Below, in pieces: positions 6,261 through 56,707 of a stretch of DNA of 64,000 bases. The stretch covers positions 48,518-112,517 of the forward strand of contig CBIMES010000002.1 of the NCBI GenBank assembly GCA_966243015.1. Reading direction: 5' to 3'. Source of the DNA: an uncultured bacterium (GTDB lineage Bacteria; Patescibacteriota; Minisyncoccia; Phycocordibacterales; UBA6065). The notes under the pieces were generated by a model. It ran no database searches. It was not told where the DNA came from and was given only the letters and a program-made list of their open reading frames with translations. Made by a program: the position numbers and the translations under genes. Numbering within the stretch: the stretch's first letter is position 1; the number at the start of each line of letters is the position of its first letter.

Positions 6261-6262
6261 GT

Positions 6263-7220: not shown

Positions 7221-7255
7221 CGGCCCTCACATGCCAACCAGAACACCGACACCTC

Positions 7256-7283
7256 AAGCCCCGCAGTGATGCGGGGCTTTTTA
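7256..7283. terminator. Bidirectional terminator hairpin (aagccccgca-gtga-tgcggggctt followed by a T-tract)
   Basis: 10-bp perfect stem followed by ttttatt, located between convergent genes. Confidence 0.7.
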
Positions 7284-7571: not shown

Positions 7572-7577
7572 ATTATG

Positions 7578-7738: not shown

Positions 7739-7739
7739 A

Positions 7740-8174: not shown

Positions 8175-8195
8175 TCGCCTAACCCATTACAAGCC

Positions 8196-8528: not shown

Positions 8529-8548
8529 AAACAACACTTACAACCATT

Positions 8549-10657: not shown

Positions 10658-10683
10658 TATAATGCAAATGAGTTGCATATAAT
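10658..10683. promoter_or_regulatory. Palindromic operator candidate TGCAA-N5-TTGCA overlapping a TATAAT -10 box upstream of the ZIP transporter gene
   Basis: tataATGCAAatgagTTGCATataat. The same half-sites recur upstream of the Fur-family gene at 54908-54922. Confidence 0.5.
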
Positions 10684-10724
10684 TCTGCGTCGCGCTATAC
10701 TCGTCATCACAACAACGAACAACT

Positions 10725-11537: not shown

Positions 11538-11558
11538 CCATTTAAGCATTCACTCAAT

Positions 11559-13830: not shown

Positions 13831-14772
13831 TTACGGCTTGTAGCAGAACAGGAACGAGTGGTCGACGAGAGAACTTCCGTTTCCGCTGTAATAGACTCTT
13901 TTCTGAAGAACCCCGTTAACCGCATCACAACCCGAATCACCGTTATTTCCGGTCACAGGATTGCTATAAGGGTTGTAACCTCCGCCCCACATGCCATAAA
14001 ACTGCTGTTGCACTGGTATAGAGAGATTCGTCGTATAGCAATACCAGAGTGGGTAATCCACGTCGGTCTTTCCCGCAACCTGCTTTGCGGTATACCCCGT
14101 CGGGCAGGCCTTGGTGTTGCCCGCGAGCGGGTTGGTGTACGTTGACGAGTTGTATGTGTTTCCACTAGTCCAACCGTATCCGTACATACCACCAAATTCA
14201 GCGACCTTTGAGACGTTGGCCGAAGATCCTACACAAACCCAGACGCTGTAGTCGTAATCAGTCCTTCCGAGAACCTTATAGGGGGCATATCCCGTCGGGC
14301 AGGCCTTGGTGTTGCCCGCGAGCGGGTTGGTGTAGTTTGAAGATCCGCCACCGTACATGCCTCCGAAGTAGTACTCGATTTCGGTCGTAGGGTCCTCGCA
14401 GACAGCCTGACCATTCGCGTCAATTCCTCGAAGGAACTCGCCTGGAGGGCACGTTATGGAAGTGGAAACTGGCCACGCATCGAGGCAGACCTCGTTAAGG
14501 CATATGTCGCCCGCAATAGCGAGAGTCGACGGCATCGACGAGGAACCCACTTTCACAGGACCATCAAAGAACGCATCGAGCATTGATCGGAAGCCGTTAG
14601 TCACAAGGCCGCCCGACTTGGTCTGTGTGATCGAGCTCACGTTGATGGGCGCCGGTGCGTCACCCGCCGGAGGAGTTGACGAGGGTGCCGTCCATGCCTG
14701 AATCGAGATTGCGCTTCCCAGAAGAAGCGAGAGGCAGAACATTGCGTAGAATATCGAGCTCTTTGTTTTCAT
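13831..14772 (-). CDS. Secreted Cys-rich protein with internal repeats (YTNPLAGNTKACPTGY repeated twice)
   Basis: Signal peptide MKTKSSIFYAMFCLSLLLGSAISIQA, paired cysteines, and a 44-bp perfect direct repeat inside the CDS. Confidence 0.6.
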   Translation of the reverse strand: MKTKSSIFYAMFCLSLLLGSAISIQAWTAPSSTPPAGDAPAPINVSSITQTKSGGLVTNGFRSMLDAFFDGPVKVGSSSMPSTLAIAGDICLNEVCLDAWPVSTSITCPPGEFLRGIDANGQAVCEDPTTEIEYYFGGMYGGGSSNYTNPLAGNTKACPTGYAPYKVLGRTDYDYSVWVCVGSSANVSKVAEFGGMYGYGWTSGNTYNSSTYTNPLAGNTKACPTGYTAKQVAGKTDVDYPLWYCYTTNLSIPVQQQFYGMWGGGYNPYSNPVTGNNGDSGCDAVNGVLQKRVYYSGNGSSLVDHSFLFCYKP

Positions 14773-14821: not shown

Positions 14822-16057
14822 CTATATCTCCTCGAATCGAGCGCTGACTGGCGACTGCTTTATCCTGTACACCTTCGTCCTCGACGGCACCCCGTCCCCT
14901 GTCGCGTTCAAGGTTACGTAATACCACGTGCAGTTGATAGGGACATTCTCCGCCGAGCATGCGTTCACGATCTTCCTGTTAACCCTGAGCTTGAAAGTGG
15001 TTACCCCGTTGTACGGAAGGGTTATCGAACCCGGCGTCTCGGTGAACCCAGAGGTTCCGAGGGCGTACTCTATCGTCGTGCTCGCCGGAAGTGCCGAGGA
15101 AAGACCTCCGAACGAGATATCAACATCGCCCGTGTATCCGCCGTAGGAAACCACGGTGATTTTCTTGGTCTCGGAATCAGAGCCCGCGTCGCCAATCGTC
15201 TGAAGCTTGATGTCCTCGGGACCTCCGATGCTGAAGCCTGGCTGCTGGATGAGGACCGTGAATGAGGCGGTCTGCGTATTTGAATAGCCCGAGCCGTTCT
15301 GGCAGCTGAACTGATACGTGTAGGAACCGTTCGTGAGAGGACCCGTCATCGCGGACGAGCTGGTCGCGATGCCCGTGACCGTGGTAAAGGCGGTTCCGCC
15401 CGAAGAGGTCTTTGAAAGCGTACATGACGTGCCCACAGGCAGGTCAGACACCGTCCAGGCAAGGGAGACGTTTGATCCGTACTCGATGTCGGTCCTATCC
15501 TTTATGCTGAGTCCGCCCAGAAGCGCGTCAAACGAGACACCGGGGAATCCCGTGGCTATCTGCACGCCGCCGACGCCGGCAAAGTTCACCCAGCCCACGA
15601 CGTCACTGCCCCACGCAAAACCGACGAGACTTGGACCAGACTGGCTTATGCCGTATCCTGTACCAGCCATGCTGATCCAGCCGTCCCAGCCATAGCCGTT
15701 CGCGGACGTCGCCTTTGCCCAACCAACGATGTCAGAGCCGACCAACTTGGCATTGACGGCCTGGGTTCCGTCACCCGTCGGGAAGCCGGAGAGGCCGCCG
15801 AACTGAATCCAGCCGATATTCGGGGACCAGGCGTATCCAGAGAGATCGCCCGTGCTCGGGTTTATATTAACGCCGTAATTAACCGGCGACGCCTGCACGC
15901 CCGCAGCAGACTCGTCATGGTCGTTCGTCGAGTTGAAACTGATCCAGCCGATATTAGAAGACCACGCAAAACCCGAGAGGTTATGCTCACTGCCCGCACT
16001 CGCAAGAAAAGGGGAGAAAAGAAGGGCGAGGGCGAAGAACAAAATACTTTTTCTCAT
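14822..16057 (-). CDS. Secreted repeat protein (GFAWSSNIGWISF-type repeats repeated four times)
   Basis: Signal peptide MRKSILFFALALLFSPFLASA. Tandem aromatic repeats ([FY]AWS.NIGWI.F), followed by a Ser/Thr/Gly-rich region. Confidence 0.6.
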   Translation of the reverse strand: MRKSILFFALALLFSPFLASAGSEHNLSGFAWSSNIGWISFNSTNDHDESAAGVQASPVNYGVNINPSTGDLSGYAWSPNIGWIQFGGLSGFPTGDGTQAVNAKLVGSDIVGWAKATSANGYGWDGWISMAGTGYGISQSGPSLVGFAWGSDVVGWVNFAGVGGVQIATGFPGVSFDALLGGLSIKDRTDIEYGSNVSLAWTVSDLPVGTSCTLSKTSSGGTAFTTVTGIATSSSAMTGPLTNGSYTYQFSCQNGSGYSNTQTASFTVLIQQPGFSIGGPEDIKLQTIGDAGSDSETKKITVVSYGGYTGDVDISFGGLSSALPASTTIEYALGTSGFTETPGSITLPYNGVTTFKLRVNRKIVNACSAENVPINCTWYYVTLNATGDGVPSRTKVYRIKQSPVSARFEEI

Positions 16058-16070: not shown

Positions 16071-17441
16071 TCAGAGAAAATACTCGATGTCCCTCTCGGG
16101 AACCACGGCATTCGCACCGAGCTCGCTGCGAAGCCTCTGCGCGAGGAAAGCCGAGGACTTATTCTCCCCCATCGCCACGAACACCTTCCTGATCTTGGGA
16201 AGGGCGTGGCCTACGAAATCGACGAGATTATCAGAGTCCTTGTGAGACGAGTAACCACTGATTTTCTCGATGCGGGCGCGAACGCGCACCTTTGCGCCGT
16301 CGATTGTGACGCTGGGGCGCTTATCCTCAATCTGTCTTCCAATAGAACCGGCAACCTGATATCCCACGAGAAGGATTGTCGATTTCGGGTCATCGAGGAA
16401 CGAAGTCTCGGGATGAAGTACCCTGCCGCCGACCGACATGCCCGAACCGGCGATAATAATCTTTGGCCCCTTCATGCGATCAATCGTCTGAGACTCCTGA
16501 TGGTCCCGCACGATTCTGAGTCCAGGAAAATTGAAGATGTCGTCCCCTGCCCTGATAACGCCCTGAGTCTTATCGTTGAACTCCTCGATATGGGCGCGAT
16601 ACACGTCAGTGACCTTGATGGCGAGCGGCGAGTCAAGGAACACCGGCACACGCGGCAGGACGTTCGACTCAATGAGATTGTTGATTTCGTAGAGAATAAT
16701 CTGAGTTCTCTCGATGGAAAAGGCCGGAATCACCACCGTGCCGCCCTTCTGAAGGGTCTCGAGGACGATCGACTTGAGGCGAGCGCTGCGCACATCCTTC
16801 GGCTCGTGGTTCCTGTCGCCATAGACACTCTCCATGACCATGTAATCGGCGTCCGTCACGAACTCCGTGTCACGGAGGAGCGGCGTCGGCGAGTTCCCAA
16901 GGTCGCCCGTAAAGGCAATTTTTGTCTTCTTATCCCCCTCCCCGAGGGTTACCTCGATGATGGCTGAGCCGAGAATGTGCCCCGCGTCCTTCCAGTACAG
17001 AGACACCTCTGGGGCGAGCTGGAACGTCTCGTGATACTCAATCGTCTTCCAGAGCGAGAGGGCGCGCGCAACATCCTCCTTCTCGTACATAGGATCAAGA
17101 CCAGACTGACGAGCCTCGCGGGCAATAAGGGCCTGGGCGTCCTCAAGCATGAGGGCAGCGAGCTCCTTGGTCTCGACGGTCGAGTAGATGACGCCCGCAA
17201 AGCCAGCGCGGACGAGCTTGGGTATGCGGCCAATGTGATCCATGTGCGCATGGGTCACGAGCAGGTAATCAATCTTCGCCGGATCATAGGCAAACTCGGC
17301 ACGATTCTCCTCCATGGCGTAACGAGAGCCCTGAATAAGGCCGCAGTCCACGAGAATCAAGAGTTTCGGGGTCTTGAGCAGGAAGTTGGCGCCCGTGGCG
17401 TTACCCACCCCACTACAACATGTCAGGCTATAGTTACTCAT
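16071..17441 (-). CDS. MBL-fold metallo-hydrolase, beta-CASP RNA-metabolising family (RNase J / CPSF-like)
   Basis: HAHMDHIG (HxHxDH) motif, beta-CASP region, and a C-terminal RMMBL-like segment. Confidence 0.75.
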   Translation of the reverse strand: MSNYSLTCCSGVGNATGANFLLKTPKLLILVDCGLIQGSRYAMEENRAEFAYDPAKIDYLLVTHAHMDHIGRIPKLVRAGFAGVIYSTVETKELAALMLEDAQALIAREARQSGLDPMYEKEDVARALSLWKTIEYHETFQLAPEVSLYWKDAGHILGSAIIEVTLGEGDKKTKIAFTGDLGNSPTPLLRDTEFVTDADYMVMESVYGDRNHEPKDVRSARLKSIVLETLQKGGTVVIPAFSIERTQIILYEINNLIESNVLPRVPVFLDSPLAIKVTDVYRAHIEEFNDKTQGVIRAGDDIFNFPGLRIVRDHQESQTIDRMKGPKIIIAGSGMSVGGRVLHPETSFLDDPKSTILLVGYQVAGSIGRQIEDKRPSVTIDGAKVRVRARIEKISGYSSHKDSDNLVDFVGHALPKIRKVFVAMGENKSSAFLAQRLRSELGANAVVPERDIEYFL

Positions 17442-32030: not shown

Positions 32031-33020
32031 TTATCTGACGGGAATGCCATCCTTTAAAAGGGTGAAAAGGAAGGTCTTCTTGTAGTCGTAATGCGGAGCG
32101 AATACCGCGTCCGTGCCGACGGCCTCAAGCTTGAGCAGATAGGTCACGGTAACCCGGTATTTGGGTTCTGACGCCGTCCCGATTGATTCGACTCGCGTTG
32201 TGGGTGAGCCCAGAATCGTCGTTTCGACATTAACATTCCGAACAGCTAGGTCCTTTGACTTTACCAACCCTGCAGCCCGACCGCCATTTACCGTGGTCAC
32301 CCCCTCCCCTTGCAGGCTGGCGGATATGACCGTCGATGAGCTTTTCGCGTTACGAACATCAACCTTGACGACAAAATCGCGCTTGGAACGGGCGGGGATT
32401 TCCCAGTCCACGTCCTCAAATACGATTTCGTCATTCATCACGTCTGCCATGGCAATGAAATCATTACCCTGGTAGAGATAAGCCCTGGTTACCATCGCGG
32501 AACCGCCCGAAGTCTTAACCAGAATCCGAACATCATCGACAGTCCTCTTTTTAAGGGAAGAAAGCGTGAAGTTCAGAATCGGAACCAGGTCAACCTCATC
32601 ATCCTCTGCGCCGTAAGAGGCCACGGCAAAACTGGGACCAGTCTGCTGCGAGGCGTAAAGACAGAGATCGACGGGCACAGGCTTCTTCCAGAACTTGGAC
32701 GGAAGCCGGACGGCTGAACTGATTCGATTGACCCCAGTCGCGTGACGGCTTTCCAGAAACGGATCGGGCAGCTGCCAGGTCGGAGACCAGACAGCGCCTT
32801 CAAACGAAACCCGATAAACCTCCCTGCCGGGATTGACGACCTCATACGACACCGAGACGGGGAGCGTGATTTCATTGTTCTCCTGAAGCTTGAAATAGCC
32901 CGCAGGATAACCACCTACGACCACGCCCGAAGACGGGACGCTGTAAGAGACCTTGAGCTGGGCAAAAGCGTTCGTGACGCTGATAACAATGGCAAAGAAC
33001 AGGACGGGCAGTAGTTTCAT
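32031..33020 (-). CDS. Secreted hypothetical protein (329 aa), paralogue B of the inserted family
   Basis: Signal peptide MKLLPVLFFAIVISVTNAFA. The N-terminal domain SVPSSGVVVGGYPAGYFKLQENNEITLPV...PG aligns with residues ~325-380 of the 35862..37175 protein. Confidence 0.6.
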   Translation of the reverse strand: MKLLPVLFFAIVISVTNAFAQLKVSYSVPSSGVVVGGYPAGYFKLQENNEITLPVSVSYEVVNPGREVYRVSFEGAVWSPTWQLPDPFLESRHATGVNRISSAVRLPSKFWKKPVPVDLCLYASQQTGPSFAVASYGAEDDEVDLVPILNFTLSSLKKRTVDDVRILVKTSGGSAMVTRAYLYQGNDFIAMADVMNDEIVFEDVDWEIPARSKRDFVVKVDVRNAKSSSTVISASLQGEGVTTVNGGRAAGLVKSKDLAVRNVNVETTILGSPTTRVESIGTASEPKYRVTVTYLLKLEAVGTDAVFAPHYDYKKTFLFTLLKDGIPVR

Positions 33021-41462: not shown

Positions 41463-42386
41463 ATGGCATCCAACGAAGAAAACCTCCCTCTCAAGCTCAT
41501 CCAGCGAAACGCGGACGAGCTTAACCTCAAGAACCCCCTCATGGTCGAGGGTGAGGCAGCCTTGTTCGCGGAATACCCTTCCCCTGTAGAGAGCGCCGTT
41601 GTCTTCCTACCCAAGAGCAAAGCCCTCATTAATATGACCCTCGCCCTGGTTTCGGGAATCGTCAAAGAGGACGGCATCATCGTCCTTGCAGGGACGAACA
41701 ATGCGGGCATTCGCTCGGCGAACAACGCCTACGAGACGCAGGTGGGCCCTGTCGAGAAGAAATTCGTGGGCAATCACTCGGCCCTCTATGTGGGCAAGAA
41801 CAAGAAGCTCGGCGCAGGCAAGAAAATCGCTGATTTCCTCTCATTCTCGAAGCTCTCGTATAAAGACACCGATCTAGACGTCGCCAGCCTCCCCGGCGTA
41901 TTCAGCGCAGACGGACTCGACGAGGGAACCAGACTCCTCCTCGACACCATCCCTTACGAGAAAAGGGCGAAGCGCGTGCTTGATATTGCCTGCGGCGCGG
42001 GAATTATCGGCGCAATATACAAAAAGAAATCACCTGAAAGCGACCTCACGCTCTCTGACGTGAGCCCCCTTGCTGTTGCCGCCGCCAAAGAGACCCTTAC
42101 AAAAAACACGATCGATGGATCTGTCGTACTCTCGGACGGGTTCTCGCGCATAAGCGGCACGTTCGACCTCATGGTGGCAAATCCCCCATTCCACACGGGA
42201 GTAAAAACCGATTATTCGTTTATTGAGAACTTCGCGGCAAATGCGCGCAGGCACTTGAATAAGAGCGGGGAAATATACCTCGTCGCAAACGCATTCCTCC
42301 CCTACAAGGAAAAGCTCGAACGCATCGGGCCAACCGAAATGGTCGCGGAGACCCCGAAATTTATCGTGTGGCGAACGGTCGCGTAG
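41463..42386 (+). CDS. Class I SAM-dependent methyltransferase, RsmC/RlmG-like (rRNA m2G type)
   Basis: VLDIACGAGIIG (SAM-binding motif) and ANPPFH (N2-guanine/N6-adenine catalytic motif). Start placed at MASNEEN (ATG 41463). Confidence 0.65.
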   Translation: MASNEENLPLKLIQRNADELNLKNPLMVEGEAALFAEYPSPVESAVVFLPKSKALINMTLALVSGIVKEDGIIVLAGTNNAGIRSANNAYETQVGPVEKKFVGNHSALYVGKNKKLGAGKKIADFLSFSKLSYKDTDLDVASLPGVFSADGLDEGTRLLLDTIPYEKRAKRVLDIACGAGIIGAIYKKKSPESDLTLSDVSPLAVAAAKETLTKNTIDGSVVLSDGFSRISGTFDLMVANPPFHTGVKTDYSFIENFAANARRHLNKSGEIYLVANAFLPYKEKLERIGPTEMVAETPKFIVWRTVA

Positions 42387-43182
42387 AAATCGCCTGAGCA
42401 TAGACACTCTCTATCTCAGCGGCGACAAGAGACTTGGCGAAAACGTAGACCGAATCGATGAGAAGGTTTCGCCCACACCCATTGGTACACGCGGCCAGGG
42501 CACCAAGCGTGGCGTTAAATGACGCGGGCACACCTGAGTTGGTTGAAGACAGGGTTGTGCCATCAAGCTTTCCGTCGACATACACCTTAAGAGTGGAGCC
42601 ATCATAGGTCCCCGCCAGGTGATACCAGCGTCCAGACTGTATTGCAGTAGAACCAGTCACCGACACTGCCGATCCATTCCAGATCCTAAAGGACGCCCTT
42701 CCCCCGCCAGTCACCTGGAGACTGTAGCCATTGTAGGCGCCGCAACAGTCTCGGTCGTTCGAGAAAATGTAGTTATATCCCGACGTCGTGTACTTGACCC
42801 AACCCATGACGGTAATGCTCCCGGCCATTGAGGAAAGAGAGACGTTCGACCCTGCGTTTACGTAAGGGGTGGTCCCAGACGAGGAGACGGAACAGCCCTT
42901 ACCAGTAGGCGTATCGGTCGAAAACGCCGCGCCGCCAGTCAAGGTGCCCGTATTGCCGTTGCCAGAGAGGTCGTTGGCGACAGTGCCGCTGCACTCGTCG
43001 AACTCCCATATACCCATAGCCTCGTCACCCGCGGCGTGATACACATTTGCGGCAAACTGCCGAGAGGCAGCAAGAGCGGCCTTCGATCGAGAAGCATTCA
43101 CGCTCGATATAACAACGCTCGAAAGAAGCGCGACAATGGCAATGACGACAAGAAGCTCGATGAGGGTGAATCCCCTTTTCAT
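42361..43182 (-). CDS. Type IV pilin-like protein fused to a LamG/concanavalin-A-like domain (second copy)
   Basis: Start placed at MKRGFTLIELLVVIAIVALLSSV. LamG-like region GRWYHLAGTYDGSTLKVYVDGKLDG. The ORF-track 73-aa N-terminal extension is rejected. Confidence 0.75.
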   Translation of the reverse strand: MKRGFTLIELLVVIAIVALLSSVVISSVNASRSKAALAASRQFAANVYHAAGDEAMGIWEFDECSGTVANDLSGNGNTGTLTGGAAFSTDTPTGKGCSVSSSGTTPYVNAGSNVSLSSMAGSITVMGWVKYTTSGYNYIFSNDRDCCGAYNGYSLQVTGGGRASFRIWNGSAVSVTGSTAIQSGRWYHLAGTYDGSTLKVYVDGKLDGTTLSSTNSGVPASFNATLGALAACTNGCGRNLLIDSVYVFAKSLVAAEIESVYAQAISTRPFATR

Positions 43183-43201
43183 ACAGTACAGTGTACCCAA
43201 C

Positions 43202-43819
43202 TTAAAGCCCTGTGAACACCCTGAAGAGGAGGGGCACGAGCGGCGAGAAGAACTGCCAGAAGAAGACGAGGAAGATGATGACGCCGAGGAAACCAAGCCT
43301 TTCAACCCTCTCGCGGAACGCCACGAAGCGCTGAGGCAGAAGAGTCGTGAGCACCTTCGATCCGTCGAGAGGAGGAATGGGGACGAGATTAAAAACGGCA
43401 AGCGTCAGGTTGATGATGACGATAATCTGAGACAACACCCCGAGAGGGCTCTCGAGAAGACCCTGTGGCCACACATAAAGGCGAATAAACGTGCCGAAGA
43501 TGAGGGCAATGATGATATTGGACAGAGGCCCCGCGGCGGCAACAAGCCCCTCTCCCCATCGCCTGTTACGGAGATTGTAGGGATTATACGGAACAGGCTT
43601 CGCCCAACCGAAGACAATACCCCCTGGCAAAAGAAGGGTTATGACGGGAAACACGATTGTTCCCATTATGTCTATGTGCCTGAGCGGATTCAGGGTGAGC
43701 CTGCCTTCGTAGGCGGCAGTCTTGTCGCCGAGAGCCAGGGCTGCGTATCCATGGGCTATCTCATGGATAATGACCGAAAACAGGAGGATGACGAGGGAGA
43801 AAATGAGTTGTAGATCCAT
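43202..43819 (-). CDS. Site-2 protease family (peptidase M50) membrane metalloprotease
   Basis: HEIAHG (HExxH) and the FNLVPIPPLDG motif; multiple TM helices. Confidence 0.8.
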   Translation of the reverse strand: MDLQLIFSLVILLFSVIIHEIAHGYAALALGDKTAAYEGRLTLNPLRHIDIMGTIVFPVITLLLPGGIVFGWAKPVPYNPYNLRNRRWGEGLVAAAGPLSNIIIALIFGTFIRLYVWPQGLLESPLGVLSQIIVIINLTLAVFNLVPIPPLDGSKVLTTLLPQRFVAFRERVERLGFLGVIIFLVFFWQFFSPLVPLLFRVFTGL

Positions 43820-44197: not shown

Positions 44198-44716
44198 ATG
44201 AGCTCCCAAACAAAACCCATCGTAGCGACCCTGTGCTACCTCATAGAAATCAGGGGCGGCAAGCAGAAAATCCTGCTCGCCCGGAAAGCTCGAACGCCAA
44301 AGGCCGTTAAATACGGCATTGCCAATCGCCTCAATGGCTATGGAGGGCACAAGGAAGACGGCGAGACGGTTCGCAGGTGCTGCATCCGCGAGCTTCGCGC
44401 AGAATCCGGAATCGCGGTGGAAAGCCGAAACCTCAAAGAGGTCGCCCGCATCACCTACGACAACAATGGTGACACCCAAGTGCTCGTCCACGTCTTTAAG
44501 GCTACCAAGCACAAGGGGGAACCAAGGAACTCGAACGAGATGACGGACCCTCGCTGGTATTCGACCGAGAACATCCCCTACGACCAGATGCCGTCTGGGG
44601 ACAAGCTCGTGCTCCCCCACATCATAAAAGGCGAGAAAGTGGAGGGGTTGATACGATACGACGAGAACAGGAACATCACCGATTACGAGATACACCTTGT
44701 CGACGATTTCTCCTGA
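44198..44716 (+). CDS. NUDIX hydrolase
   Basis: Nudix box GGHKEDGETVRRCCIRELRAESGI (G.{5}E.{7}REUxEExGU). Confidence 0.75.
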   Translation: MSSQTKPIVATLCYLIEIRGGKQKILLARKARTPKAVKYGIANRLNGYGGHKEDGETVRRCCIRELRAESGIAVESRNLKEVARITYDNNGDTQVLVHVFKATKHKGEPRNSNEMTDPRWYSTENIPYDQMPSGDKLVLPHIIKGEKVEGLIRYDENRNITDYEIHLVDDFS

Positions 44717-44752
44717 CGTCGACCCAAGGCGGGAGTCTGAAACTCCCGCCTT

Positions 44753-45640
44753 TTATTTTATTCTGAACGACTCCCCATAAGACTCAAATCCTATGGTCCC
44801 CACTTCATCCGTTCGAAGCGCCTTTACGTCCAAGCGATCAAAAAGCGACACGACCTCGTCATTCGGATGGTGATACGAGTTGTCCTTACCCACCGAGAAA
44901 ATAACCCAGCGTGGATCAACCCCACGCACGAAAGATTCCGCAGAAGATGTGCGGGAGCCATGATGACCTGCCTTCAAGATATCGCTCCGGATGAGCGTAC
45001 CACCCAAAGAAAGAACAGAGCCCTCGGCAGCTTTGGGCGCATCGCCGGTAAGCATGACAGACGAACCCCCATAGACAAGACGGCCCATGATCGATGCGTC
45101 ATTCGGATCCTTGAGATCAGATACGTCCGCTATCGGAAACAGAATCTCAAATACCACACCGTCGCCAAAATCAACACGCATGCCGCGTCGGGCAATGACA
45201 GACCGAACCCCCTTCCCAGCGCGAATGCGACGAATCTCGTCATCGATAGCATTGGACGATTCAATACCCGGCTCCATAAAAACACCGACCGAATAGCGAT
45301 TGAGAACGGGAGGAAAGCCACCGATATGATCAGCATCAGGATGGGTCTCTACCAATATATCGATATGACGATCGTCCCACGGCATGACCTCAGATAACCT
45401 GCGCAGCACGCCGACCGACCTGCCGCCGTCGACAAGCATATCGCGGCCGGACGGGGTGCGAACGTATATTGCGTCACCCTGACCAACATCGAGAAAGAAG
45501 ACATCAAGCGGACGAGGTGAAACGGCGGCGTGAAACGCAATGAATGAGACAGTACACACCATGCATGAAACGATAAGAGTGAAACGTCGAAACCGTTGCA
45601 TCAGGCCATGATTGCATGCGGGTGATAAAGAGCCCATCAA
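44753..45640 (-). CDS. ComEC/Rec2-type metallo-beta-lactamase domain protein (stand-alone)
   Basis: FFLDVGQGDA...THPDADHIGG...GHHGS motifs typical of the ComEC C-terminal MBL domain. N-terminal TM anchor. Confidence 0.75.
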   Translation of the reverse strand: MMGSLSPACNHGLMQRFRRFTLIVSCMVCTVSFIAFHAAVSPRPLDVFFLDVGQGDAIYVRTPSGRDMLVDGGRSVGVLRRLSEVMPWDDRHIDILVETHPDADHIGGFPPVLNRYSVGVFMEPGIESSNAIDDEIRRIRAGKGVRSVIARRGMRVDFGDGVVFEILFPIADVSDLKDPNDASIMGRLVYGGSSVMLTGDAPKAAEGSVLSLGGTLIRSDILKAGHHGSRTSSAESFVRGVDPRWVIFSVGKDNSYHHPNDEVVSLFDRLDVKALRTDEVGTIGFESYGESFRIK

Positions 45641-45643
45641 TGT

Positions 45644-45659
45644 ATAATGAAATCATTAT
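45644..45659. promoter_or_regulatory. Fur-box-like palindrome ATAATGA-AA-TCATTAT overlapping the TGTATAAT -10 element of the sod promoter
   Basis: 7-2-7 inverted repeat 25 nt upstream of the sod ATG; it resembles Fur/PerR/Zur boxes. Confidence 0.5.
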
Positions 45660-45683
45660 CAAATCACTCACAGAAACACATAT

Positions 45684-46292
45684 ATGAAGAAGTTTGAAGA
45701 AAAGACATTCAACATACCCTCACTCAAAGGAATATCCGCGGGAAACATCGAGGAGCACCTCAAGCTCTACTCGGGCTACGTAAAGCACGCGAATCTCATC
45801 ATCGAGAAAATCGCGGAACTCACCGCCACCGCCGAAAGCGCCGACAAGAATGCTTACGCAATTAACGAGATGCAGCGACGGTTCGGCTTCGAGTTCGACG
45901 GCATGCGCAACCACGAGTACTATTTTGCGCACCTCGAGGGTGGGGCCCAGACACTTGCCGACGGAAGCTCGCTCAAGGCGGCTATCGAGTCTGAATGGGG
46001 CTCGTTCGACGGATGGCTCGCCCGCTTCAAGGCCCTCGCCCTCACCCGAGGAATCGGCTGGGCAATCCTCTACTACGACGCACACAGCGATCGCCTTGTG
46101 AACGCCTGGATCGACGAGCAGCATCTTGGCCACCTCACGGGCCTCAAACCCGTTCTCGCTCTCGACGTCTGGGAACACTCGTTCGTGGCCGACTATAAGC
46201 CATCGGGCAAGAAGGCATACGTCGAGGACTTCTTCGCGAACCTTAACTGGTCAACTGCCGAGAAGAATTTCTCCGACGCCAGCGGACGATAA
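45684..46292 (+). CDS. sodA: Fe/Mn-family superoxide dismutase
   Basis: C-terminal DVWEHSF..DY motif and overall SodA/SodB-like sequence; 202 aa. Confidence 0.75.
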   Translation: MKKFEEKTFNIPSLKGISAGNIEEHLKLYSGYVKHANLIIEKIAELTATAESADKNAYAINEMQRRFGFEFDGMRNHEYYFAHLEGGAQTLADGSSLKAAIESEWGSFDGWLARFKALALTRGIGWAILYYDAHSDRLVNAWIDEQHLGHLTGLKPVLALDVWEHSFVADYKPSGKKAYVEDFFANLNWSTAEKNFSDASGR

Positions 46293-47727
46293 AATAGACA
46301 TAGGACGCATAAGCGAGTACAAGCAGAGGCTCTCCGATGGAGAGCCTTATTGCTGCAAACGGCAGTGGGCCAAAATACGCGACGACCTCGAGCATATAGG
46401 AGATAAGCAAGCTCGTCGCCATGACGAACGGCATCGCCAGGGACGCGCTCGCGAAACCCATCATACCGACAAGGAAACCGCCGAGCATGACCCAGGGCAC
46501 ACACGGTAGTACGAGGACATTCGTGACGAGCGAGATGATAGATATCTCGCCCATGGCATACAGAATAAAAGGCAGGGTAAATATCTGCGTCGCGACAGTC
46601 GTCACAAGAATCTCGCGTAGGCCAAATCTCTCGGGAACCCATGTCATCCACTCGGCCACGATAGGTGACACATAGATAAGCGCGAGCGTCGCGAGAAAGC
46701 TCAACTGGAATCCAATGTCGAACGCAAGAATGCGCGGATTCTGTAACACCATGATGAAGGCGGCGCAGGTAAGCGCTCGAACCACGTCGTATCTCCTGCC
46801 CACGCCACGCACCAAAATAACAACGAGCGTCATGACCGACGCACGAATCGTCGTCGAAGAAGCGCCTGTCATGAGGGCAAAGAGCACGATCGAGACAGCG
46901 CCCGCACCGAGACCAAGAGAGCGTGGAAGAAACGAGAAAGCCCTCACCAGACTCTCGGCGACAACGGACACATTCGACCCCGAAAGCACGAGAATATGCG
47001 TGAGACCCGACCTGCGAAAGTCATCACTCACATCCTGGGGCAGAGACCCTTTCTCGCCCAAGAGAATGCCCGCGACAAGAGACGCATGCGGCTCGGGCAT
47101 GGTCACCTCGATGTTTTCCATGAACGCTGACTTGAGGGTAATGAGGGCACTGACAAGCGTGTTGCCTTGGGAACGAGCAAGGATCTCGACCCTCGCCCTC
47201 TTCATCACGTACCTCACGTCGTCTTTGGCGAGATATGACACGTAATCAAACTCGGGCCCTCCTTCGTAGGTGAAGAAATTCTCGGGAAGCTCGAGTGTCG
47301 CCTCGACGCGCAGGCGATCTCCATACGCATATTCGGGATACCTGTCAGTCGACACGGACACCCGATCAATACTGCCATCAGGCTGGAAGCAGAATCTCTG
47401 CGTCACCTCCTTCATTTCCGGTTCGGCGCAGACAACTCCCTCGAGCACGACCGTGAAGCCAAGAGAAGGGTCGAGAACATGGTCGTGGATACCGGCCGCA
47501 GAGATTCTCTCCATGCCAAACGCGCAGATAAAAATCGAGCACACAATCGTGAACACCGCAGGAGGGGCCGATCGACAACCAACACGTACCCATCGTGCGT
47601 ACGCATACAAGAAAGCACAAACTGACATAAACCCCATGCAAACAGAACGGGGCACAGGCACGTGTGACGCGAAAAGCGTGCCCATGAAAAACGAGAGGGT
47701 TAGGGAATAGAATAAGGGACCTTTCAT
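46243..47727 (-). CDS. comEC: ComEC/Rec2 competence membrane protein (DUF4131 plus competence core, lacking the MBL domain)
   Basis: Polytopic membrane protein with a ComEC core. The MBL domain is encoded separately at 44753..45640. Confidence 0.7.
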   Translation of the reverse strand: MKGPLFYSLTLSFFMGTLFASHVPVPRSVCMGFMSVCAFLYAYARWVRVGCRSAPPAVFTIVCSIFICAFGMERISAAGIHDHVLDPSLGFTVVLEGVVCAEPEMKEVTQRFCFQPDGSIDRVSVSTDRYPEYAYGDRLRVEATLELPENFFTYEGGPEFDYVSYLAKDDVRYVMKRARVEILARSQGNTLVSALITLKSAFMENIEVTMPEPHASLVAGILLGEKGSLPQDVSDDFRRSGLTHILVLSGSNVSVVAESLVRAFSFLPRSLGLGAGAVSIVLFALMTGASSTTIRASVMTLVVILVRGVGRRYDVVRALTCAAFIMVLQNPRILAFDIGFQLSFLATLALIYVSPIVAEWMTWVPERFGLREILVTTVATQIFTLPFILYAMGEISIISLVTNVLVLPCVPWVMLGGFLVGMMGFASASLAMPFVMATSLLISYMLEVVAYFGPLPFAAIRLSIGEPLLVLAYASYVYFIVRWRRRNSSRQLTS

Positions 47728-47774
47728 AGCCCCTTACGCTACCCGACAGAGAGTGAAACCAAGCTCAAGATTAT

Positions 47775-48482
47775 TTAAAATCCCCATGAACGAGCGATCT
47801 CGCGCTCATCCTCGGCGCTCACCGACTTCTTGAAGCGGGCGCCCCGCACGCCCTTCACCCGCGCCTCACACTCGGCCCAGGTCGCGTGCCGCTGGAACTT
47901 GCCGTCGACGACAGAGAGGTACGAGTATGCCTTCACCGACGACGATGACGACTTCTTTTTCTTCTGGGCTAAACCCGCGGCAGACGCGCGGACAGAGAGA
48001 TCGATTGTGTATGAAGAAGCATCGCCCACATAGAGGGCGGGCGGGTCCTGATCGGCAAAACCAGTCGCAATCTCGTCGCAGCGCTCGTTCCCAGGCACTC
48101 CGGCATGACCGTCGACATGATCCCAGGTAACCTTCAAACCCCTCGTGGCAGCGAGAAGACCCTCCCAAAGATCCTTATTGCCGACCTCCTGCTTGCCTGC
48201 GGTAATCCAGCCGTTACGTTGCCAACCCTTAACCCACGAGGTGATGCCTTGGATGACGTATTTGGAGTCGCAACGCACCGTGATGTCATCGGAGCTGTCG
48301 GCATACGCCCTCACCCAATCAAGGGCGCTGATGGCGGCCATCAGCTCCATCCTGTTGTTGGTCGTGCTTGCCTCCCGCCCGCCGAGCTCGACGACGCGAG
48401 AACCCGTCTGAATAACCGTGCCCCAGCCGCCCGGGCCGGGATTTCCTCGAGAAGAACCGTCGGTATAGATAAGCGTAGACAT
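47775..48482 (-). CDS. rnhA: Ribonuclease HI with a C-terminal RNA/DNA hybrid-binding (HBD, Cauli_VI-like) domain
   Basis: RNase H motifs DGSSRGNPGPGGWG, TNNRMEL, DSKYV, GHAGVPGNERCD. The C-terminal region YSYLSVVDGKFQRHATWAECEARVKGVRGARFKKSVSAEDE matches the HBD signature. Confidence 0.8.
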   Translation of the reverse strand: MSTLIYTDGSSRGNPGPGGWGTVIQTGSRVVELGGREASTTNNRMELMAAISALDWVRAYADSSDDITVRCDSKYVIQGITSWVKGWQRNGWITAGKQEVGNKDLWEGLLAATRGLKVTWDHVDGHAGVPGNERCDEIATGFADQDPPALYVGDASSYTIDLSVRASAAGLAQKKKKSSSSSVKAYSYLSVVDGKFQRHATWAECEARVKGVRGARFKKSVSAEDEREIARSWGF

Positions 48483-48485
48483 GAC

Positions 48486-50165
48486 CTAGAGTATATCAAC
48501 AATTCTCAATCTGAGTTCGGGATAGCTCTTGAACATTGATTTCTCGAGATGAACGGCGACGTCGATAATCGCCTGTGGCACGACGTGCTTCGGCAGCATA
48601 TCCTTCGTCAGAAAGAACTGGATGGCGGTGAGCTTTCGGCCTTTCCTGTCGAGGAAGGTGATCTCCGTGTGATTACCCTCCTTGCCGAACTGCTTCACCC
48701 CGTCGACCGTCGCTCCCTTGATGAGAAATACGGGGCGCTCGTTGCCTGTGCCGAACGGCGAGAGCCTCTCTATGTCCTTATACAGATCCCAGACCACCTC
48801 GTCGACGGATATAAGGGCGTCTGCGTACTTGATAATCTCTTTGTTCGTGTGGTCGAGGGACGCCCACGCCTTCTCGAGCGCATCCTCGAGATAATGCACC
48901 GCGTCCTCCTTCACCTCGAACCCGCCCGAGGCCGCGTGGCCGCCGTAACCAATAAATGAGTCAGCGGCTTTCTCCATGATCGAGAACACGCTCGCGTTCC
49001 CCGCATTGCCCGAGCGACACGATCCCTTGATGACGCCCTCGCCGTCCCTGCCCCAGAGAAACGCGGGCATACCGTACTCCTCGGCAAGCGTGTTGGCAAC
49101 GAGACCCATGAGCGACGGTCTCCACGTCGGATTGCCGAGCACAATAACGTGACGGTTTTCCATATCGCGCTCTGACAGAATCTTTCTCGCCTCCTTCACA
49201 AGAGCAGCCACGGTTCCCTTTCGTTCGGCATTCACCGCCTCAAGCTTGTCGGCGCACTTCGCGCCCACTTCACGATCATCAGTCGAGAGCAGAAGAAAGG
49301 CATGCTCAGGCTCGCCCATACGCGACGCGGCATTGATGCGGGGCGAGATGGTGAAGCCGATGTCATCCTCAGTGAGATGCTCTGGCTTAACGCGCAGCCT
49401 AAAGAAAAGTTCGAGTAGACCAGGGCGTTTGGTCATGCGCAAAACCTTCAAACCATAATGAGCGAAAATGCGGTTCTCGCCCGTGAGCGGCACCATGTCA
49501 GAAAGCGTGGCGATACCCACCATGTCGAGCCACCACTTCTCCCAGCCAACGGGAACCCTGAACTCCTCGCCATGCCTCTTGAGAAACGCTTGGGCGAACT
49601 TGAAAATCACGCCCGAACCGCAAAGCATCTTCTCGGGATAGGCGCAGCCCTCCATCTTTGGGTTGAGAATGGCGTAGGCATCGGGAACCGTGCCGTGCGG
49701 CATATGATGATCAGTAATGATGAGATCCATGCCAAGCTCCTTGGCGCGGGCCGCCTCCTCGATATCGGCGATGCCGCAATCAATAGTGATGATGAGTGAC
49801 GCGCCCTTTTCCTTGAAACCATCAATCGCCTTCATGTTGAGGCCGAAGCCCTCGTCGTGACGATGCGGTATATAGTTCTCGAAATTGGTGTAGCCGATTT
49901 TCTTGAGAAGATCGTGAAGGACAACTGCCCCCGGAATGCCGTCAGCGTCATAGTCGCTGAAGACGACGATTTTCTCCCCCGCCTTCACGGCCCGATAGAC
50001 GCGATCGACGGCCCTGTCCATGTCCTTCATGAGGAACGGGTCGTGAATTTGCGCGTCGTAATTAGGCGAGAGGAAGGACTCAATGGCCTTCTCGTCCTGA
50101 ATGCCGCGATGGTAGAGGAGACCCGAGACAATGTCCCCCTTTTTCTCTCGGACGGTGTAATGCAT
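48486..50165 (-). CDS. recJ: Single-stranded-DNA-specific exonuclease RecJ
   Basis: DHH (VVFSDYDADGI; ITDHH) and DHHA1 domains. Start placed at the internal Met (MHYTV) to avoid a 51-nt divergent overlap with the HIT gene. Confidence 0.8.
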   Translation of the reverse strand: MHYTVREKKGDIVSGLLYHRGIQDEKAIESFLSPNYDAQIHDPFLMKDMDRAVDRVYRAVKAGEKIVVFSDYDADGIPGAVVLHDLLKKIGYTNFENYIPHRHDEGFGLNMKAIDGFKEKGASLIITIDCGIADIEEAARAKELGMDLIITDHHMPHGTVPDAYAILNPKMEGCAYPEKMLCGSGVIFKFAQAFLKRHGEEFRVPVGWEKWWLDMVGIATLSDMVPLTGENRIFAHYGLKVLRMTKRPGLLELFFRLRVKPEHLTEDDIGFTISPRINAASRMGEPEHAFLLLSTDDREVGAKCADKLEAVNAERKGTVAALVKEARKILSERDMENRHVIVLGNPTWRPSLMGLVANTLAEEYGMPAFLWGRDGEGVIKGSCRSGNAGNASVFSIMEKAADSFIGYGGHAASGGFEVKEDAVHYLEDALEKAWASLDHTNKEIIKYADALISVDEVVWDLYKDIERLSPFGTGNERPVFLIKGATVDGVKQFGKEGNHTEITFLDRKGRKLTAIQFFLTKDMLPKHVVPQAIIDVAVHLEKSMFKSYPELRLRIVDIL

Positions 50166-50216
50166 GGCAGGTATTTTATCATGCGCCCGCCCTTGATTTC
50201 GTGATATTCTTTCCGT

Positions 50217-50582
50217 ATGGAAAACTGCATATTCTGCAAGATAGTGGTCGGAGAAATCCCCTGCCACAAGATATACGAGGACGGCGATTTCCTCGCCTTT
50301 CTCGATATCAGGCCGCTTTCAGCGGGTCATACCCTCGTCATACCAAAAACCCATCATCGCTGGGTGTGGGACGTGCCAAATGCAGGCGCATATTTCGAGA
50401 TAGCCAAGAAGATCGCGCTCGCCCAGAAGAAGGCCTTCGGCACCGACGAAGTGTTCTCGAAGGTATTCGGCGAGGAGGTTCCCCACGCGCATATCTGGGT
50501 GTATCAGAATCCGGCGATATCGAAGCTCGATGCGAAGGATTTTGAGGCTCATGCAGAAGCAATCAAAGCAGCACTTGTGTAG
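50217..50582 (+). CDS. HIT-family (histidine triad) hydrolase
   Basis: CIFCKI and the HAHIWV (HxHxHxx) motif. Confidence 0.8.
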   Translation: MENCIFCKIVVGEIPCHKIYEDGDFLAFLDIRPLSAGHTLVIPKTHHRWVWDVPNAGAYFEIAKKIALAQKKAFGTDEVFSKVFGEEVPHAHIWVYQNPAISKLDAKDFEAHAEAIKAALV

Positions 50583-54979: not shown

Positions 54980-56707
54980 TTATGGCCGCGAAGCGACTGT
55001 CATGACCTCTTCGATGCTCGTCAGACCTTGGGCTGCGGCGAGAACACCGTCCTCTATAAGAGTGAGCATCCCCTCCTTCTTGGCGCGCTCCTCGAGAGCG
55101 TCAGCCTTGGCACCCTTCATGACGAGCTCCTTGAGCGCGGGCGACATTCTGAGGACCTCGAAGAGGCCGATGCGTCCGGCGTACCCGTCAGTGCCCGCAG
55201 CAGCCTTCGGCGTGCCGAAGAGAACCTTGTCCCAACCATCGCGAGAGCCGATGATCTTCTCCGAGCGAAGAAGTGAGAGCAGCCTGTCGAGATCGGCGAC
55301 CCGACCCAGCGCGGCAAGCTCCGCTTTGGTAAGGGGCCTGCGATTGCGAGCGTCAGCGAGCCTGCGCACGAGCCTCTGGCTCACCACCGTCGACAGCGTC
55401 GACGAAAGCATGAATGGGTCAAGCCCCGTCTCAAGCATCTGAACGACAGCGGCGGAAGCGGAGTGAGACCTCACCATAGAGAGGATGAGTCGGCCGGACA
55501 GGGCGGCATGAGCGGCGAGCGACGTAGTGTCGGCATCGCGCACCTCCCCCACCATGATCACGTCAGCGTCCTGCCTGACGGCAGAGCGAAGACCCGCGGC
55601 GAACGTGAGGCCGATATCTGGCCTAACCTGGGTCTGAGAGACGCGAGGCATCTGGTACTCAATAGGGTCCTCGACCGTCGAGACGCTCGTATCAGGAGAA
55701 TTGACAATATCAATCATCGTATACAAAGTGGTCGAAGTGCCAGAAGACGCCGGGCCAGAGACGAGAATCATGCCCGACCCCTTTTTGAGAGCACCATGCA
55801 CACGCTCGAGCGCCTCGCCACGAAGGCCCAGATGCTCGAGGGTGAATCCCGAGGCGCTCTCACGCATGAGGCGGATGACCGTCTTCTCGCCATGCGCGGT
55901 AGGAGCGATCGATACGCGCAGCGAAACCTTCTCGTGATTCATCTCAACCTTGAAGCGACCGTCCTGGGGCACATCCCTCTCCCCGACCCTCAGCTTGGCG
56001 AGCGACTTGATGCGCGCGGCAAGACCGATCTCGGTCTCTTTAGGCAAGACCATGGCATCGTGAAGCGAGCCGTTGATACGGTAGCGAACCAACAGATCCC
56101 TCTCGAGAGGCTCTATGTGTATATCGGAAGCGTTCTGAACAATCGCGTGCTTGAGAAGGGTGTCGAGAACACGGACCACCGACAAATCGTCGGCAAGCCT
56201 GAGAGAGCTAACGCCCGCCTGATTCCTGAGAATGCCCGTCTCCTTCCTTATAATGTCTCCAAACTCTGACTTGAGGCCTCTCTGATAGCGAAGAAGCGCC
56301 GATTTCATTGACTCAGCGTCCGTAAAGCGAGGCAAAACCTTGAGACCCACCTTCTTTGCCAAGAAATCAATGGACGAGAGAGCCCGAAGATCGAGCAGGG
56401 CAACCTCCAGAGCGACCTCTCCCTTCTTGTAGGCGATGACGTTGTGGTTTCGAGCAATAGGCTCAGGAATAAGAGAAAGCGTCTCAAAATCAATCTTCTT
56501 CGAAGAAAGGTCGACGAAGGGAATGCCGAGAATGTATGACTGAACGCGGCGGAAGTCATCTTCCGAAAGGTGACCCTCGCTTACGAGGACCTCACCGAGG
56601 CTCTTGCCCGTATCCTGGGCATCCCTCTGGTACTCGGAAATGTCCCTGCGGGACACGAGACCCGAGCTGATGATGAAGTCCCTGAGCTGTGCGTCGCCAA
56701 TGAGCAT
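54980..56707 (-). CDS. GspE/PilB-family secretion ATPase homologue with degenerate catalytic motifs (predicted non-catalytic paralogue)
   Basis: T2SE N-terminal domain and ATPase core are present. Walker A reads GPASSGTST (no Lys), the His box reads LSMVRSHS, and the tetracysteine motif is absent. Asp box VEDPIEY and Walker B DVIMVGEVRD are conserved. Confidence 0.7.
   Translation of the reverse strand: MLIGDAQLRDFIISSGLVSRRDISEYQRDAQDTGKSLGEVLVSEGHLSEDDFRRVQSYILGIPFVDLSSKKIDFETLSLIPEPIARNHNVIAYKKGEVALEVALLDLRALSSIDFLAKKVGLKVLPRFTDAESMKSALLRYQRGLKSEFGDIIRKETGILRNQAGVSSLRLADDLSVVRVLDTLLKHAIVQNASDIHIEPLERDLLVRYRINGSLHDAMVLPKETEIGLAARIKSLAKLRVGERDVPQDGRFKVEMNHEKVSLRVSIAPTAHGEKTVIRLMRESASGFTLEHLGLRGEALERVHGALKKGSGMILVSGPASSGTSTTLYTMIDIVNSPDTSVSTVEDPIEYQMPRVSQTQVRPDIGLTFAAGLRSAVRQDADVIMVGEVRDADTTSLAAHAALSGRLILSMVRSHSASAAVVQMLETGLDPFMLSSTLSTVVSQRLVRRLADARNRRPLTKAELAALGRVADLDRLLSLLRSEKIIGSRDGWDKVLFGTPKAAAGTDGYAGRIGLFEVLRMSPALKELVMKGAKADALEERAKKEGMLTLIEDGVLAAAQGLTSIEEVMTVASRP

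Follow-up and report, generated by a model that had tools for sequence, protein, structure and literature searches.

A probable two-gene ComEC in a Patescibacteria genome, with the nuclease domain on a separate membrane-anchored protein and an antisense sod between the two genes

The analysed DNA (the window, 64,000 nucleotides from an uncultured bacterium of the Patescibacteria) carries a gene for a ComEC channel subunit (the core), a stand-alone metallo-beta-lactamase (MBL) gene and, between them on the opposite strand, a superoxide dismutase gene (sod) (Table 1). These three open reading frames were found where an earlier note on this DNA had placed them. The core belongs to a co-oriented recJ-rnhA-comEC run, an order kept in most related loci. 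For recJ, gene callers take a later start, giving a product of 559 aa (called genes in locus L001).

Table 1. Features of the comEC-sod region (positions of the window)
Feature	Position	Strand	Details
GC-rich hairpin between the convergent 3' ends of the nudix and nuclease-subunit genes	44726..44752	+	terminator scan; T-run only on + strand
ComEC nuclease subunit, stand-alone membrane-anchored metallo-beta-lactamase-fold protein	44753..45640	-	295 aa from TTG 45640
Catalytic site of the nuclease subunit, metal-binding motif HPDADH (HxDxDH)	45326..45343	-	from the translation; H100-P-D-A-D-H105
N-terminal membrane anchor of the nuclease subunit, FRRFTLIVSCMVCTVSFIAFHAAVSP	45515..45592	-	corresponds to the final TM helix of fused ComEC
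AT-rich divergent spacer between the starts of sod and the nuclease subunit	45641..45683	.	82 nt long with an MBL start at 45601
Fe/Mn superoxide dismutase (sod)	45684..46292	+	202 aa; lies between the two ComEC genes, antisense to both
Tail-to-tail overlap of core and sod coding regions	46243..46292	.	50 nt; stop codons on both strands
ComEC channel subunit (core)	46243..47727	-	494 aa; TM region at the N-terminus, then OB fold (DUF4131), Competence domain
RNase H gene (rnhA)	47775..48482	-	directly upstream of core, 47-nt gap; RNase_H E 1e-40
recJ (ssDNA exonuclease)	48486..50267	-	DHH, DHHA1, RecJ_OB; first gene of the recJ-rnhA-comEC run

The core ORF matched the Pfam Competence model (PF03772) over its full length (E 6.9e-51, residues 221-486) and DUF4131, the N-terminal OB fold (PF13567, E 2.1e-14, residues 27-177). 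The Pfam search detected no MBL domain in the 494 aa, and the ORF stops at 46243; the absence of the usual C-terminal MBL domain, which the note had described, was thereby borne out. Core residues 131-488 aligned to residues 140-497 of the solved full-length ComEC 30bt_A, and the C-terminus of the core lies just past the helix equivalent to TM10 of full-length ComEC. ComEC/Rec2 proteins carry an MBL nuclease domain after the channel on a single chain, a trait absent here.

The MBL domain is encoded downstream as a gene of its own, as the note had it, with 602 nt between the core stop and the MBL start (reported as about 600 bp). Its product matched Pfam Lactamase_B (PF00753) with an E of 3.6e-15. 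The start candidates are TTG 45640 (295 aa), ATG 45637 (294 aa, the database version) and ATG 45601 (282 aa); the last is likely to be the true start, because most homologs are approximately 281-289 aa long. The best PDB match was 9ic4_A, a ComEC beta-lactamase-like domain (E 5.7e-37), residues 514-792 of the full-length 30bt_A were covered, and the solved-structure matches were exclusively ComEC nuclease domains until E 5.5e-4. Sequence similarity to solved ComEC chains (E 1e-30 to 1e-37) is sufficient to settle the fold.

The N-terminal membrane anchor claimed for this protein is present as a single hydrophobic segment at residues 17-42 (Kyte-Doolittle mean 2.21), with an Arg-rich N-side (MQRFRRF). 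In alignments it matches 30bt_A from residue 514 onwards, as well as the 'ILLFSLVAALLVWQWA' helix of a fused Chloroflexota ComEC (locus L079), and in the predicted topology this TM helix would place the MBL domain that follows it outside the cytoplasm. Among 21 MBL homologs the anchor sequence was hardly conserved, with near-invariant columns starting at L45. The helix may serve simply as a tether and not for docking. The residues H100, D102, D104, H105, D200, H226, H227 and H258 were invariant across the same homologs. The metal-binding motif is intact, as the note had stated; it reads HxDxDH (HPDADH), however, and not HxHxDH. The HxDxDH form is typical of ComEC and is reported for the solved nuclease domain as H598-x-D600-x-D602-H603 (PMC12455585). 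No second ComEC or MBL copy was found within the 64-kb window; the beta-CASP MBL protein encoded at 16071-17441 resembles RNase J and is unrelated.

The two products correspond to complementary parts of ComEC. Against the ComEC model TIGR00361, the core matched positions 83-402 and the MBL protein positions 418-663; the scores of 93.3 and 122.7 bits are each below the equivalog cut-off of 190.05 bits, and sum to 216. Coverage was likewise complementary on 30bt_A (140-497 and 514-792) and on the fused 795-aa Chloroflexota protein, where the core matched residues 90-486 and the MBL protein residues 542-789. The halves are thus collinear with both, in agreement with the note that their order and orientation match a single fused gene. 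The point of division is the short cytoplasmic loop that joins the equivalents of TM10 and TM11, ahead of the last TM helix, and each product is therefore a complete module. Both parts look intact, and from homology and synteny we infer that the core and MBL proteins work together. Full-length three-domain ComEC (for example that of Neomoorella carbonis / Moorella glycerini; PDB 30bt, 9ic4; PMC12455585, PMC13539106) has the same domains in the same order, with an HxDxDH nuclease and the last TM helix ahead of the nuclease domain. Its cryo-EM structure shows an interface of the OB-fold loop with the MBL domain (PMC13539106). The present locus differs in having two polypeptides, with the OB fold and the nuclease on different chains, and in the antisense sod that separates the two genes.

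The sod product matched Sod_Fe_C (PF02777) with 80 bits (E 1.5e-22; cut-off 20.9), while its N-terminal alpha-hairpin reached 20.1 bits with Sod_Fe_N (PF00081), below the cut-off of 27. Residues 11-199 nevertheless aligned continuously, end to end, to the Fe-SOD 1coj (E 2.8e-27), relative to which the N-terminal hairpin domain is divergent. H25, H77, D161 and H165, which we take to be the four metal ligands (His, His, Asp, His) of Fe/Mn SODs, were 100% conserved in 55 orthologs and identical in the 1coj alignment. Unlike known Fe/Mn SODs, the last 16 codons and the stop of this gene overlap the ComEC core on the opposite strand. The plus-strand position between the halves and the 50-nt overlap with the 3' end of the core, both noted earlier, were confirmed; the overlap is certain because stop codons fix both 3' ends. 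On the strand opposite the core stop lie the conserved SOD N-L-N-W codons, and 12 of the 49 related loci with sod in this position likewise show an overlap of 47-53 nt.

By eye, the spacer between sod and the MBL gene contains TATAAT on the plus strand and GATAAT on the minus strand, neither of which was called by the consensus scan, and it presumably holds both putative promoters. The promoter scan was uninformative (3 sites vs 2.5 expected, none of them in this spacer), and the terminator scan found no terminator-like site on the minus strand between the core and the MBL gene.

To place the arrangement among its relatives, 83 related loci were compared. In 82 the gene was split; the lone fused locus (L079) is the Chloroflexota outgroup and the only non-Patescibacteria locus recovered. 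Among the 64 loci where the core is visible, 49 carried sod in the same antisense position, at a core identity to the window of 33-60%. The halves abut or overlap without sod in eight loci (L015, L017, L025, L026, L029, L075, L087 and L089), the overlaps of sod-free two-gene loci measuring 8-68 nt, in different frames. Other DNA lay between the halves in six further loci (metK with small genes, a multi-TM ORF or a lipoprotein-like ORF). In eight loci the 3 kb or more upstream of the MBL gene contained no core, so adjacency is not obligatory. Every one of the best 120 MBL homologs was a stand-alone protein lacking a Competence domain, with a length of 250-309 aa in nearly every case, and no MBL domain occurred in the best 120 core homologs (380-565 aa). 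With the most divergent MBL protein (L084) as query, the matches were only stand-alone proteins from Yanofskybacteria/Paceibacterota-type genomes. The neighbouring recJ, rnhA, L28, M50 and S12/S7 genes were conserved as strongly as the sod position, and the core-sod and sod-MBL pairs were each kept where the third gene had moved (L034, L040, L050, L027).

Neighbour-joining trees (100 bootstraps) were built, one from flanking markers (recJ, rnh, L28, M50) and the other from core plus MBL with the fused Chloroflexota gene as root. In the latter, the sod-free split lineage L084 branched first and the other 60 loci formed a clade with a bootstrap of 100. Apart from this separation, support was confined to shallow clades; the backbone bootstraps were 0-25. 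With such low backbone support and a single outgroup, the order of split before sod is a parsimony inference. The sod distances tracked the recJ distances (r = 0.67, Mantel 0/500). From these comparisons the ComEC split is, as we read it, an old and stable two-gene form, with sod most likely a later but likewise old arrival, a passenger between genes that were already separate. Its arrival is most likely to have occurred in the ancestor of a large sub-clade, with vertical inheritance since.

We assign a probability of about 75% to the reading that this locus is the normal two-gene ComEC of Paceibacteria/Parcubacteria-type Patescibacteria, comprising a channel and a tethered nuclease in trans, with an old split and a later sod. 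The first gene would encode the DNA channel with its OB fold, and the second a ComEC-type metallo-beta-lactamase nuclease that has kept the last TM helix of fused ComEC as its N-terminal anchor. The anchor would put the nuclease domain outside the membrane, where it would meet the channel subunit and, acting in effect in trans, degrade the DNA strand that is not imported, its partner strand passing through the channel. The nuclease gene is probably transcribed from its own promoter in the divergent spacer common with sod, and sod would be a passenger, carried along in a housekeeping neighbourhood that is very stable. The C-terminal domain of ComEC is an extracytoplasmic metal-dependent nuclease required for transformation (PMC8579336, PMC12455585). 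[quoted passage not shown] In a cultivated Saccharibacterium, of a different class, comEC deletion abolished detectable transformation (PMC10633639).

The polarity could also be the reverse, the two-gene operon being older and the fused ComEC of other bacteria having arisen by fusion, in which case the locus would be no fission product. In favour of this, the ancestor reconstructed by Pimentel and Zhang had the Competence domain alone and Lactamase_B was gained several times afterwards (PMC6299819), Meheust et al. name the non-CPR form a 'fusion', and the overlapping stop/start junctions of 8-26 nt have the look expected of a pre-fusion operon. However, the match of the anchor to the last TM helix of fused ComEC fits either direction, and the sole non-Patescibacteria locus carries the fused form; we consider this polarity unlikely.

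The MBL protein may alternatively be independent of the channel, for example a surface nuclease for nucleotide scavenging or another hydrolase, with the synteny merely inherited. The loci with no core near the MBL gene and the poorly conserved anchor are consistent with this, and multifunctionality has been proposed for CPR MBL-fold proteins (PMC10459063). It is made improbable by the restriction of the solved-structure matches to ComEC nuclease domains down to E 5.5e-4, by the invariance of the ComEC-specific motif, and by the co-orientation of the genes, with junctions to the core that overlap in several lineages as in translational coupling.

A functional role of the sod position, in which an oxidative-stress response would be coupled to DNA uptake via transcriptional interference or antisense RNA, appears quite improbable. 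The frequency of the antisense placement and the recurrent overlap would fit such a role, and core transcripts could read antisense through sod, as no minus-strand terminator-like site was found. General synteny stability suffices, however, since the whole neighbourhood is equally conserved; the conserved NLNW codons explain the overlap length mechanically, and the two gene pairs outlast relocation of the third gene. SOD is common among Patescibacteria MAGs (PMC8672522).

The note had taken the arrangement to match an ancestral single gene disrupted by insertion; on a reading of this kind, sod would have landed in comEC recently and left two fragments that may be decaying. The fused-gene order and orientation of the halves, with sod exactly between them, are as expected from such an event. 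The sod-free two-gene relatives, including overlapping operons, are what the note itself had named as the sign of an old stable split, and they speak against disruption by sod. The persistence of the layout down to 33-60% core identity speaks against a recent event, as do the invariant catalytic and domain features kept in both halves and the divergence of sod in step with its neighbours; we regard disruption as very improbable. A sequencing or assembly artefact, for which only the generic risk of metagenome assemblies speaks, is practically negligible, as the split recurs across the related loci, a 600-nt functional antisense gene separates the halves, and the identical protein occurs on 13 contigs assembled independently from several samples, the four loci shown coming from four separate ENA assemblies with the same gene order. 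A frameshift-inactivated gene is ruled out by the 602 nt and conserved antisense gene between the parts and by the invariant functional residues.

Streptococcus pneumoniae uses EndA, whose nuclease family is not known to be related to the ComEC-type MBL nuclease. EndA is likewise a separate membrane nuclease in trans beside the ComEC channel, alongside which it degrades the non-transforming strand (PMC8579336). The MBL protein described here, unlike EndA, is homologous to the C-terminal domain of ComEC itself. In two surveys, MBL-less ComEC is prevalent in CPR and the MBL fusion near absent there (Pimentel and Zhang 2018, PMC6299819; Meheust et al. 2019). The core has the architecture of the 'DC-profile' ComEC (DUF4131 and Competence, no Lactamase_B; Pimentel and Zhang 2018) and of CPR family fam000603 (Meheust et al. 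2019). The nuclease domain appears to be scored as absent in these surveys, whereas here and in 82 related loci it is a separate TM-anchored gene, usually a neighbouring one. Literature searches for a described split or two-gene ComEC, or for its partner gene, found none, the final one being too unspecific to weigh much as negative evidence.

Two questions in the field concern ComEC without a nuclease domain: by what means the non-transforming strand is then degraded (PMC8579336), and whether such variants support transformation (PMC12455585). With the nuclease domain on a separate gene, single-protein domain-count surveys undercount it. The natural cut between TM10 and TM11 marks where ComEC tolerates separation, and could guide split-protein or co-expression work on a protein that is hard to produce. 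The proposal that two subunits are obligatory for ComEC throughout this large bacterial group, the membrane-tethered nuclease being encoded in trans, is doubtful and tentative. If true, a separate ComEC-type nuclease may explain how the strand is degraded in part of those bacteria, roughly half of all, whose ComEC is scored as nuclease-less, and the overlapping two-gene operon would be an evolutionary intermediate between Competence-only and fused ComEC. For this window the result is mainly corrective: the layout is a conserved housekeeping one, with sod as a long-standing neighbour and no fresh disruption. In Paceibacteria-type Patescibacteria, the nuclease domain is present after all, encoded by a neighbouring gene with its own membrane anchor.

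The locus comprises the ComEC channel gene (core), the gene of the ComEC nuclease subunit (MBL gene) and, antisense between them, the Fe/Mn superoxide dismutase gene sod; all three ORFs were present exactly where an earlier note had placed them. A Pfam domain search of the 494-aa core ORF matched DUF4131 and Competence alone, with the MBL domain absent, as that note had described. The convergent core/sod overlap of 50 nt (46243-46292) was likewise present, and is unambiguous because the stop codons set both 3' ends. Residues 17-42 form the one hydrophobic segment of the MBL protein, preceded by arginines, and correspond to the membrane anchor claimed for it. Its metal motif is intact, but reads HPDADH (HxDxDH) rather than HxHxDH, HxDxDH being the version in the solved ComEC nuclease domain (PMC12455585). 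The catalytic residues of the MBL protein were invariant in a 21-sequence alignment, as were the four residues taken as SOD metal ligands (H25, H77, D161, H165) across 55 orthologs. The MBL start is uncertain; because of the homolog lengths we favour the ATG at 45601, which would give 282 aa beginning MQRFRRF.

Features of the window and of related loci (positions in the related loci are those of the locus named)
Feature	Positions	Strand	Description
Core	46243-47727	minus	494 aa; DUF4131 (E 2.1e-14), full-length Competence (E 6.9e-51)
MBL gene	44753-45640	minus	295 aa from TTG; Lactamase_B (E 3.6e-15)
sod	45684-46292	plus	202 aa; Sod_Fe_C (E 1.5e-22)
RNase H	47775-48482	minus	235 aa; C-terminal extension with a weak match at residues 201-219
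Pilin-like protein	739-1542	minus	N-terminal methylation motif fused to Laminin_G_3 (concanavalin-like) domain
Pilin-like protein	42361-43401	minus	N-terminal methylation motif fused to Laminin_G_3 (concanavalin-like) domain
PilB-type ATPase	54980-56707		
Second MBL-fold protein	16071-17441	minus	beta-CASP/RMMBL enzyme, RNase J-like; unrelated to the ComEC nuclease subunit
tmRNA gene	5825-6223	plus	83.5 bits
tRNA gene (one)	3078-3151	plus	
L085, insert between halves	2266-5001		metK and three small ORFs, one an ankyrin-repeat protein
L067, insert between halves	7357-7971	opposite	multi-TM ORF
L077, insert between halves	5965-7890	opposite	multi-TM ORF
L084, insert between halves	2076-2635		151-aa lipoprotein-like ORF
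L079, fused ComEC	6378-8765		Ardenticatenaceae (Chloroflexota) MAG

The two proteins were compared with TIGR00361, the equivalog model for ComEC (663 positions, cut-off 190 bits). The core covers positions 83-402 with 93.3 bits and the MBL protein positions 418-663 with 122.7 bits, both under the cut-off, and the scores add to 216 bits. Strictly, neither protein passes the equivalog test alone, because the single-polypeptide feature is lacking, and the pair together passes. The core aligns to residues 140-497 and the MBL protein to residues 514-792 of a solved 801-aa ComEC (30bt_A), and the latter also matches an isolated ComEC beta-lactamase-like domain (9ic4_A, E 5.7e-37). In the fused 795-aa ComEC of a Chloroflexota MAG (L079) the matches fall at residues 90-486 and 542-789, separated by a short basic loop and then one hydrophobic helix. 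The halves are thus collinear with a single gene, in the order that the earlier note had proposed. Cryo-EM shows 11 TM helices in ComEC and a flexible link to its nuclease domain (PMC13539106). Together with this count and the single hydrophobic segment, the two alignments place the predicted cut in the cytoplasmic loop between the TM10 and TM11 equivalents, so that the nuclease retains TM11 as a membrane anchor. Both products are complete modules.

A scan of relatives, anchored on the MBL gene with one genome per species, matched more than 600 stretches in all; the best 80 of at least 587 confirmed matches were combined with three further loci, non-redundant and of a lineage that is more divergent, and the states of these 83 loci were assigned by tblastn mapping and ORF tracing. 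The halves were split with sod antisense between them in 49/83 loci, in three of which the MBL gene had moved >2.5 kb away. Eight further loci showed no sod and halves that abut or overlap by 8-68 nt in different frames, by their layout looking like classic coupled two-gene operons (e.g., L015, ...AAGATAAATGGAA...); the overlap was 8 nt in L087 and L089. Other DNA lay between the halves in six loci, eight showed no core in an upstream flank of at least 3 kb, 11 were too short to tell, and one, the outgroup L079, was fused. The MBL domain of L079, itself among the best 80 of at least 587 confirmed matches, is 46% identical to the MBL protein of the window, a closeness similar to that of many homologs from Patescibacteria. 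The site between the two ComEC genes behaves as a recurrent insertion point, with different genes placed there in different lineages.

In a neighbour-joining tree of core and MBL rooted on L079, the sod-free split lineage L084 branches first, and proteins closely related to its MBL protein are encoded in abutting operons (L087, L089). The remaining 60 loci form one clade (bootstrap 100), with backbone bootstraps of 0-25 within it. Pairwise distances for sod and recJ were correlated (r = 0.67), a value reached in 0/500 Mantel permutations. With moderate confidence, the most economical reading of these patterns is that comEC was already in two parts, that a single arrival, early within a large sub-clade, would have placed sod between these parts, and that sod would have been vertically inherited thereafter. 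The reverse polarity, with an ancestral two-gene operon and fusion elsewhere, would agree with the gain of domains reconstructed by Pimentel and Zhang (PMC6299819); we regard it as unlikely. The earlier note had taken insertion of sod as the cause of the split, a claim contradicted by the relatives that have both genes and no sod, and a recent disruption is unsupported, with 49/83 loci sharing the layout. An assembly artefact or recent event was rejected given the identical core protein on 13 contigs, the same gene order at four of these places in four separate ENA assemblies, the invariant catalytic residues, and the best 120 homologs of each protein. For the MBL protein, every one of these stands alone and lacks a Competence domain, nearly all have lengths of 250-309 aa, and the names given are MBL-fold hydrolase or ComEC/Rec2 family protein (Paceibacterota/Patescibacteria); those of the core are 380-565 aa, 0/120 with an MBL domain.

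A core/sod overlap of 47-53 nt was found in 12/49 sod-bearing loci from several sub-clades (including L005, L006, L014, L052, L055 and L074). The core frame passes antisense through the C-terminal SOD codons and ends at TAA or TGA, the stop being antisense to the conserved SOD motif N-L-N-W (AAC CTT AAC TGG, reverse reading CCA GTT AAG). The near-constant length thus has a mechanical cause. As the core tail past the last helix (WRRRNSSRQLTS) is also variable and of low complexity, the overlap is a product of compaction, fixed in place by the conservation of SOD, and a regulatory role is not needed to explain it.

The order recJ-rnhA-core ... MBL-L28-M50, then S12-S7-EF-G, was retained in most loci, and the chromosomal setting of the window is a ribosomal-protein/SecY/EF-Tu region. 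recJ, rnhA and core point the same way, spaced by 3 and 47 nt, and make up a tight run within 44198-50267 that most relatives share. A terminator scan found no terminator-like site on the minus strand between core and MBL gene, and the AT-rich divergent sod/MBL spacer (43-82 nt) carries -10-like hexamers on both strands as candidate promoters. A NUDIX hydrolase follows the nuclease gene, replaced by NDK in L085/L089. The region 44198-50267 resembles a neighbourhood for DNA uptake and processing, a role that would be consistent with nucleotide salvage. The RNase H extension, present in several relatives and absent from others, weakly matches (E 2e-4; 21.9 bits vs a cut-off of 21) what Pfam describes as the RNase H1 N-terminal domain, here at the opposite end.

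Elsewhere in the window, the long N-terminal extension of the second pilin-like ORF is probably untranslated because gene callers give 273 aa. The Pfam search of the window gave no match for the sizeable ORFs 14822-16057, 13831-14772, 32031-33020, 1506-2408 and 10673-11545.

The two parts are conserved and intact, and each is homologous to its counterpart in experimentally characterised ComEC, where the C-terminal domain acts outside the cytoplasm as a metal-dependent nuclease needed for efficient transformation (PMC8579336). This nuclease is a 5'-3' exonuclease and endonuclease held at the channel entrance by a small conserved OB-fold contact (PMC12455585, PMC13539106). The anchored subunit would meet the channel subunit outside the membrane and degrade one strand as the other passes in. 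Poor sequence conservation of the anchor helix in the 21-sequence alignment makes tethering a more likely role for it than specific docking, and positioning would fall to the OB-MBL contact. [quoted passage not shown] The arrangement is functionally similar to pneumococcal EndA with ComEC; by ancestry it is ComEC itself.

DC-type ComEC, without Lactamase_B, is a recognised architecture (PMC6299819), and annotation pipelines already tag these small MBL proteins as ComEC/Rec2 family. In the accessible text of the literature searched, no statement was found that a separate anchored gene beside the channel gene is the 'missing' ComEC domain; strand degradation in domain-less ComECs is listed as an open question (PMC8579336, PMC12455585). 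A CPR-genome survey discusses 3349 'MBL-like' genes as possible resistance or multifunctional enzymes, and a full-text search of it returned no occurrence of the word ComEC (PMC10459063); some of these genes may be nuclease subunits of the present type. The collinear halves of the earlier interpretation thus stand, insertion of sod as the cause is unsupported, as is a recent date, and the locus is a clade-wide, old, stable two-gene ComEC variant with an old passenger sod between the halves. A two-gene ComEC is ordinary for this lineage; its wider interest is modest and lies in an under-described architecture and a natural split site.
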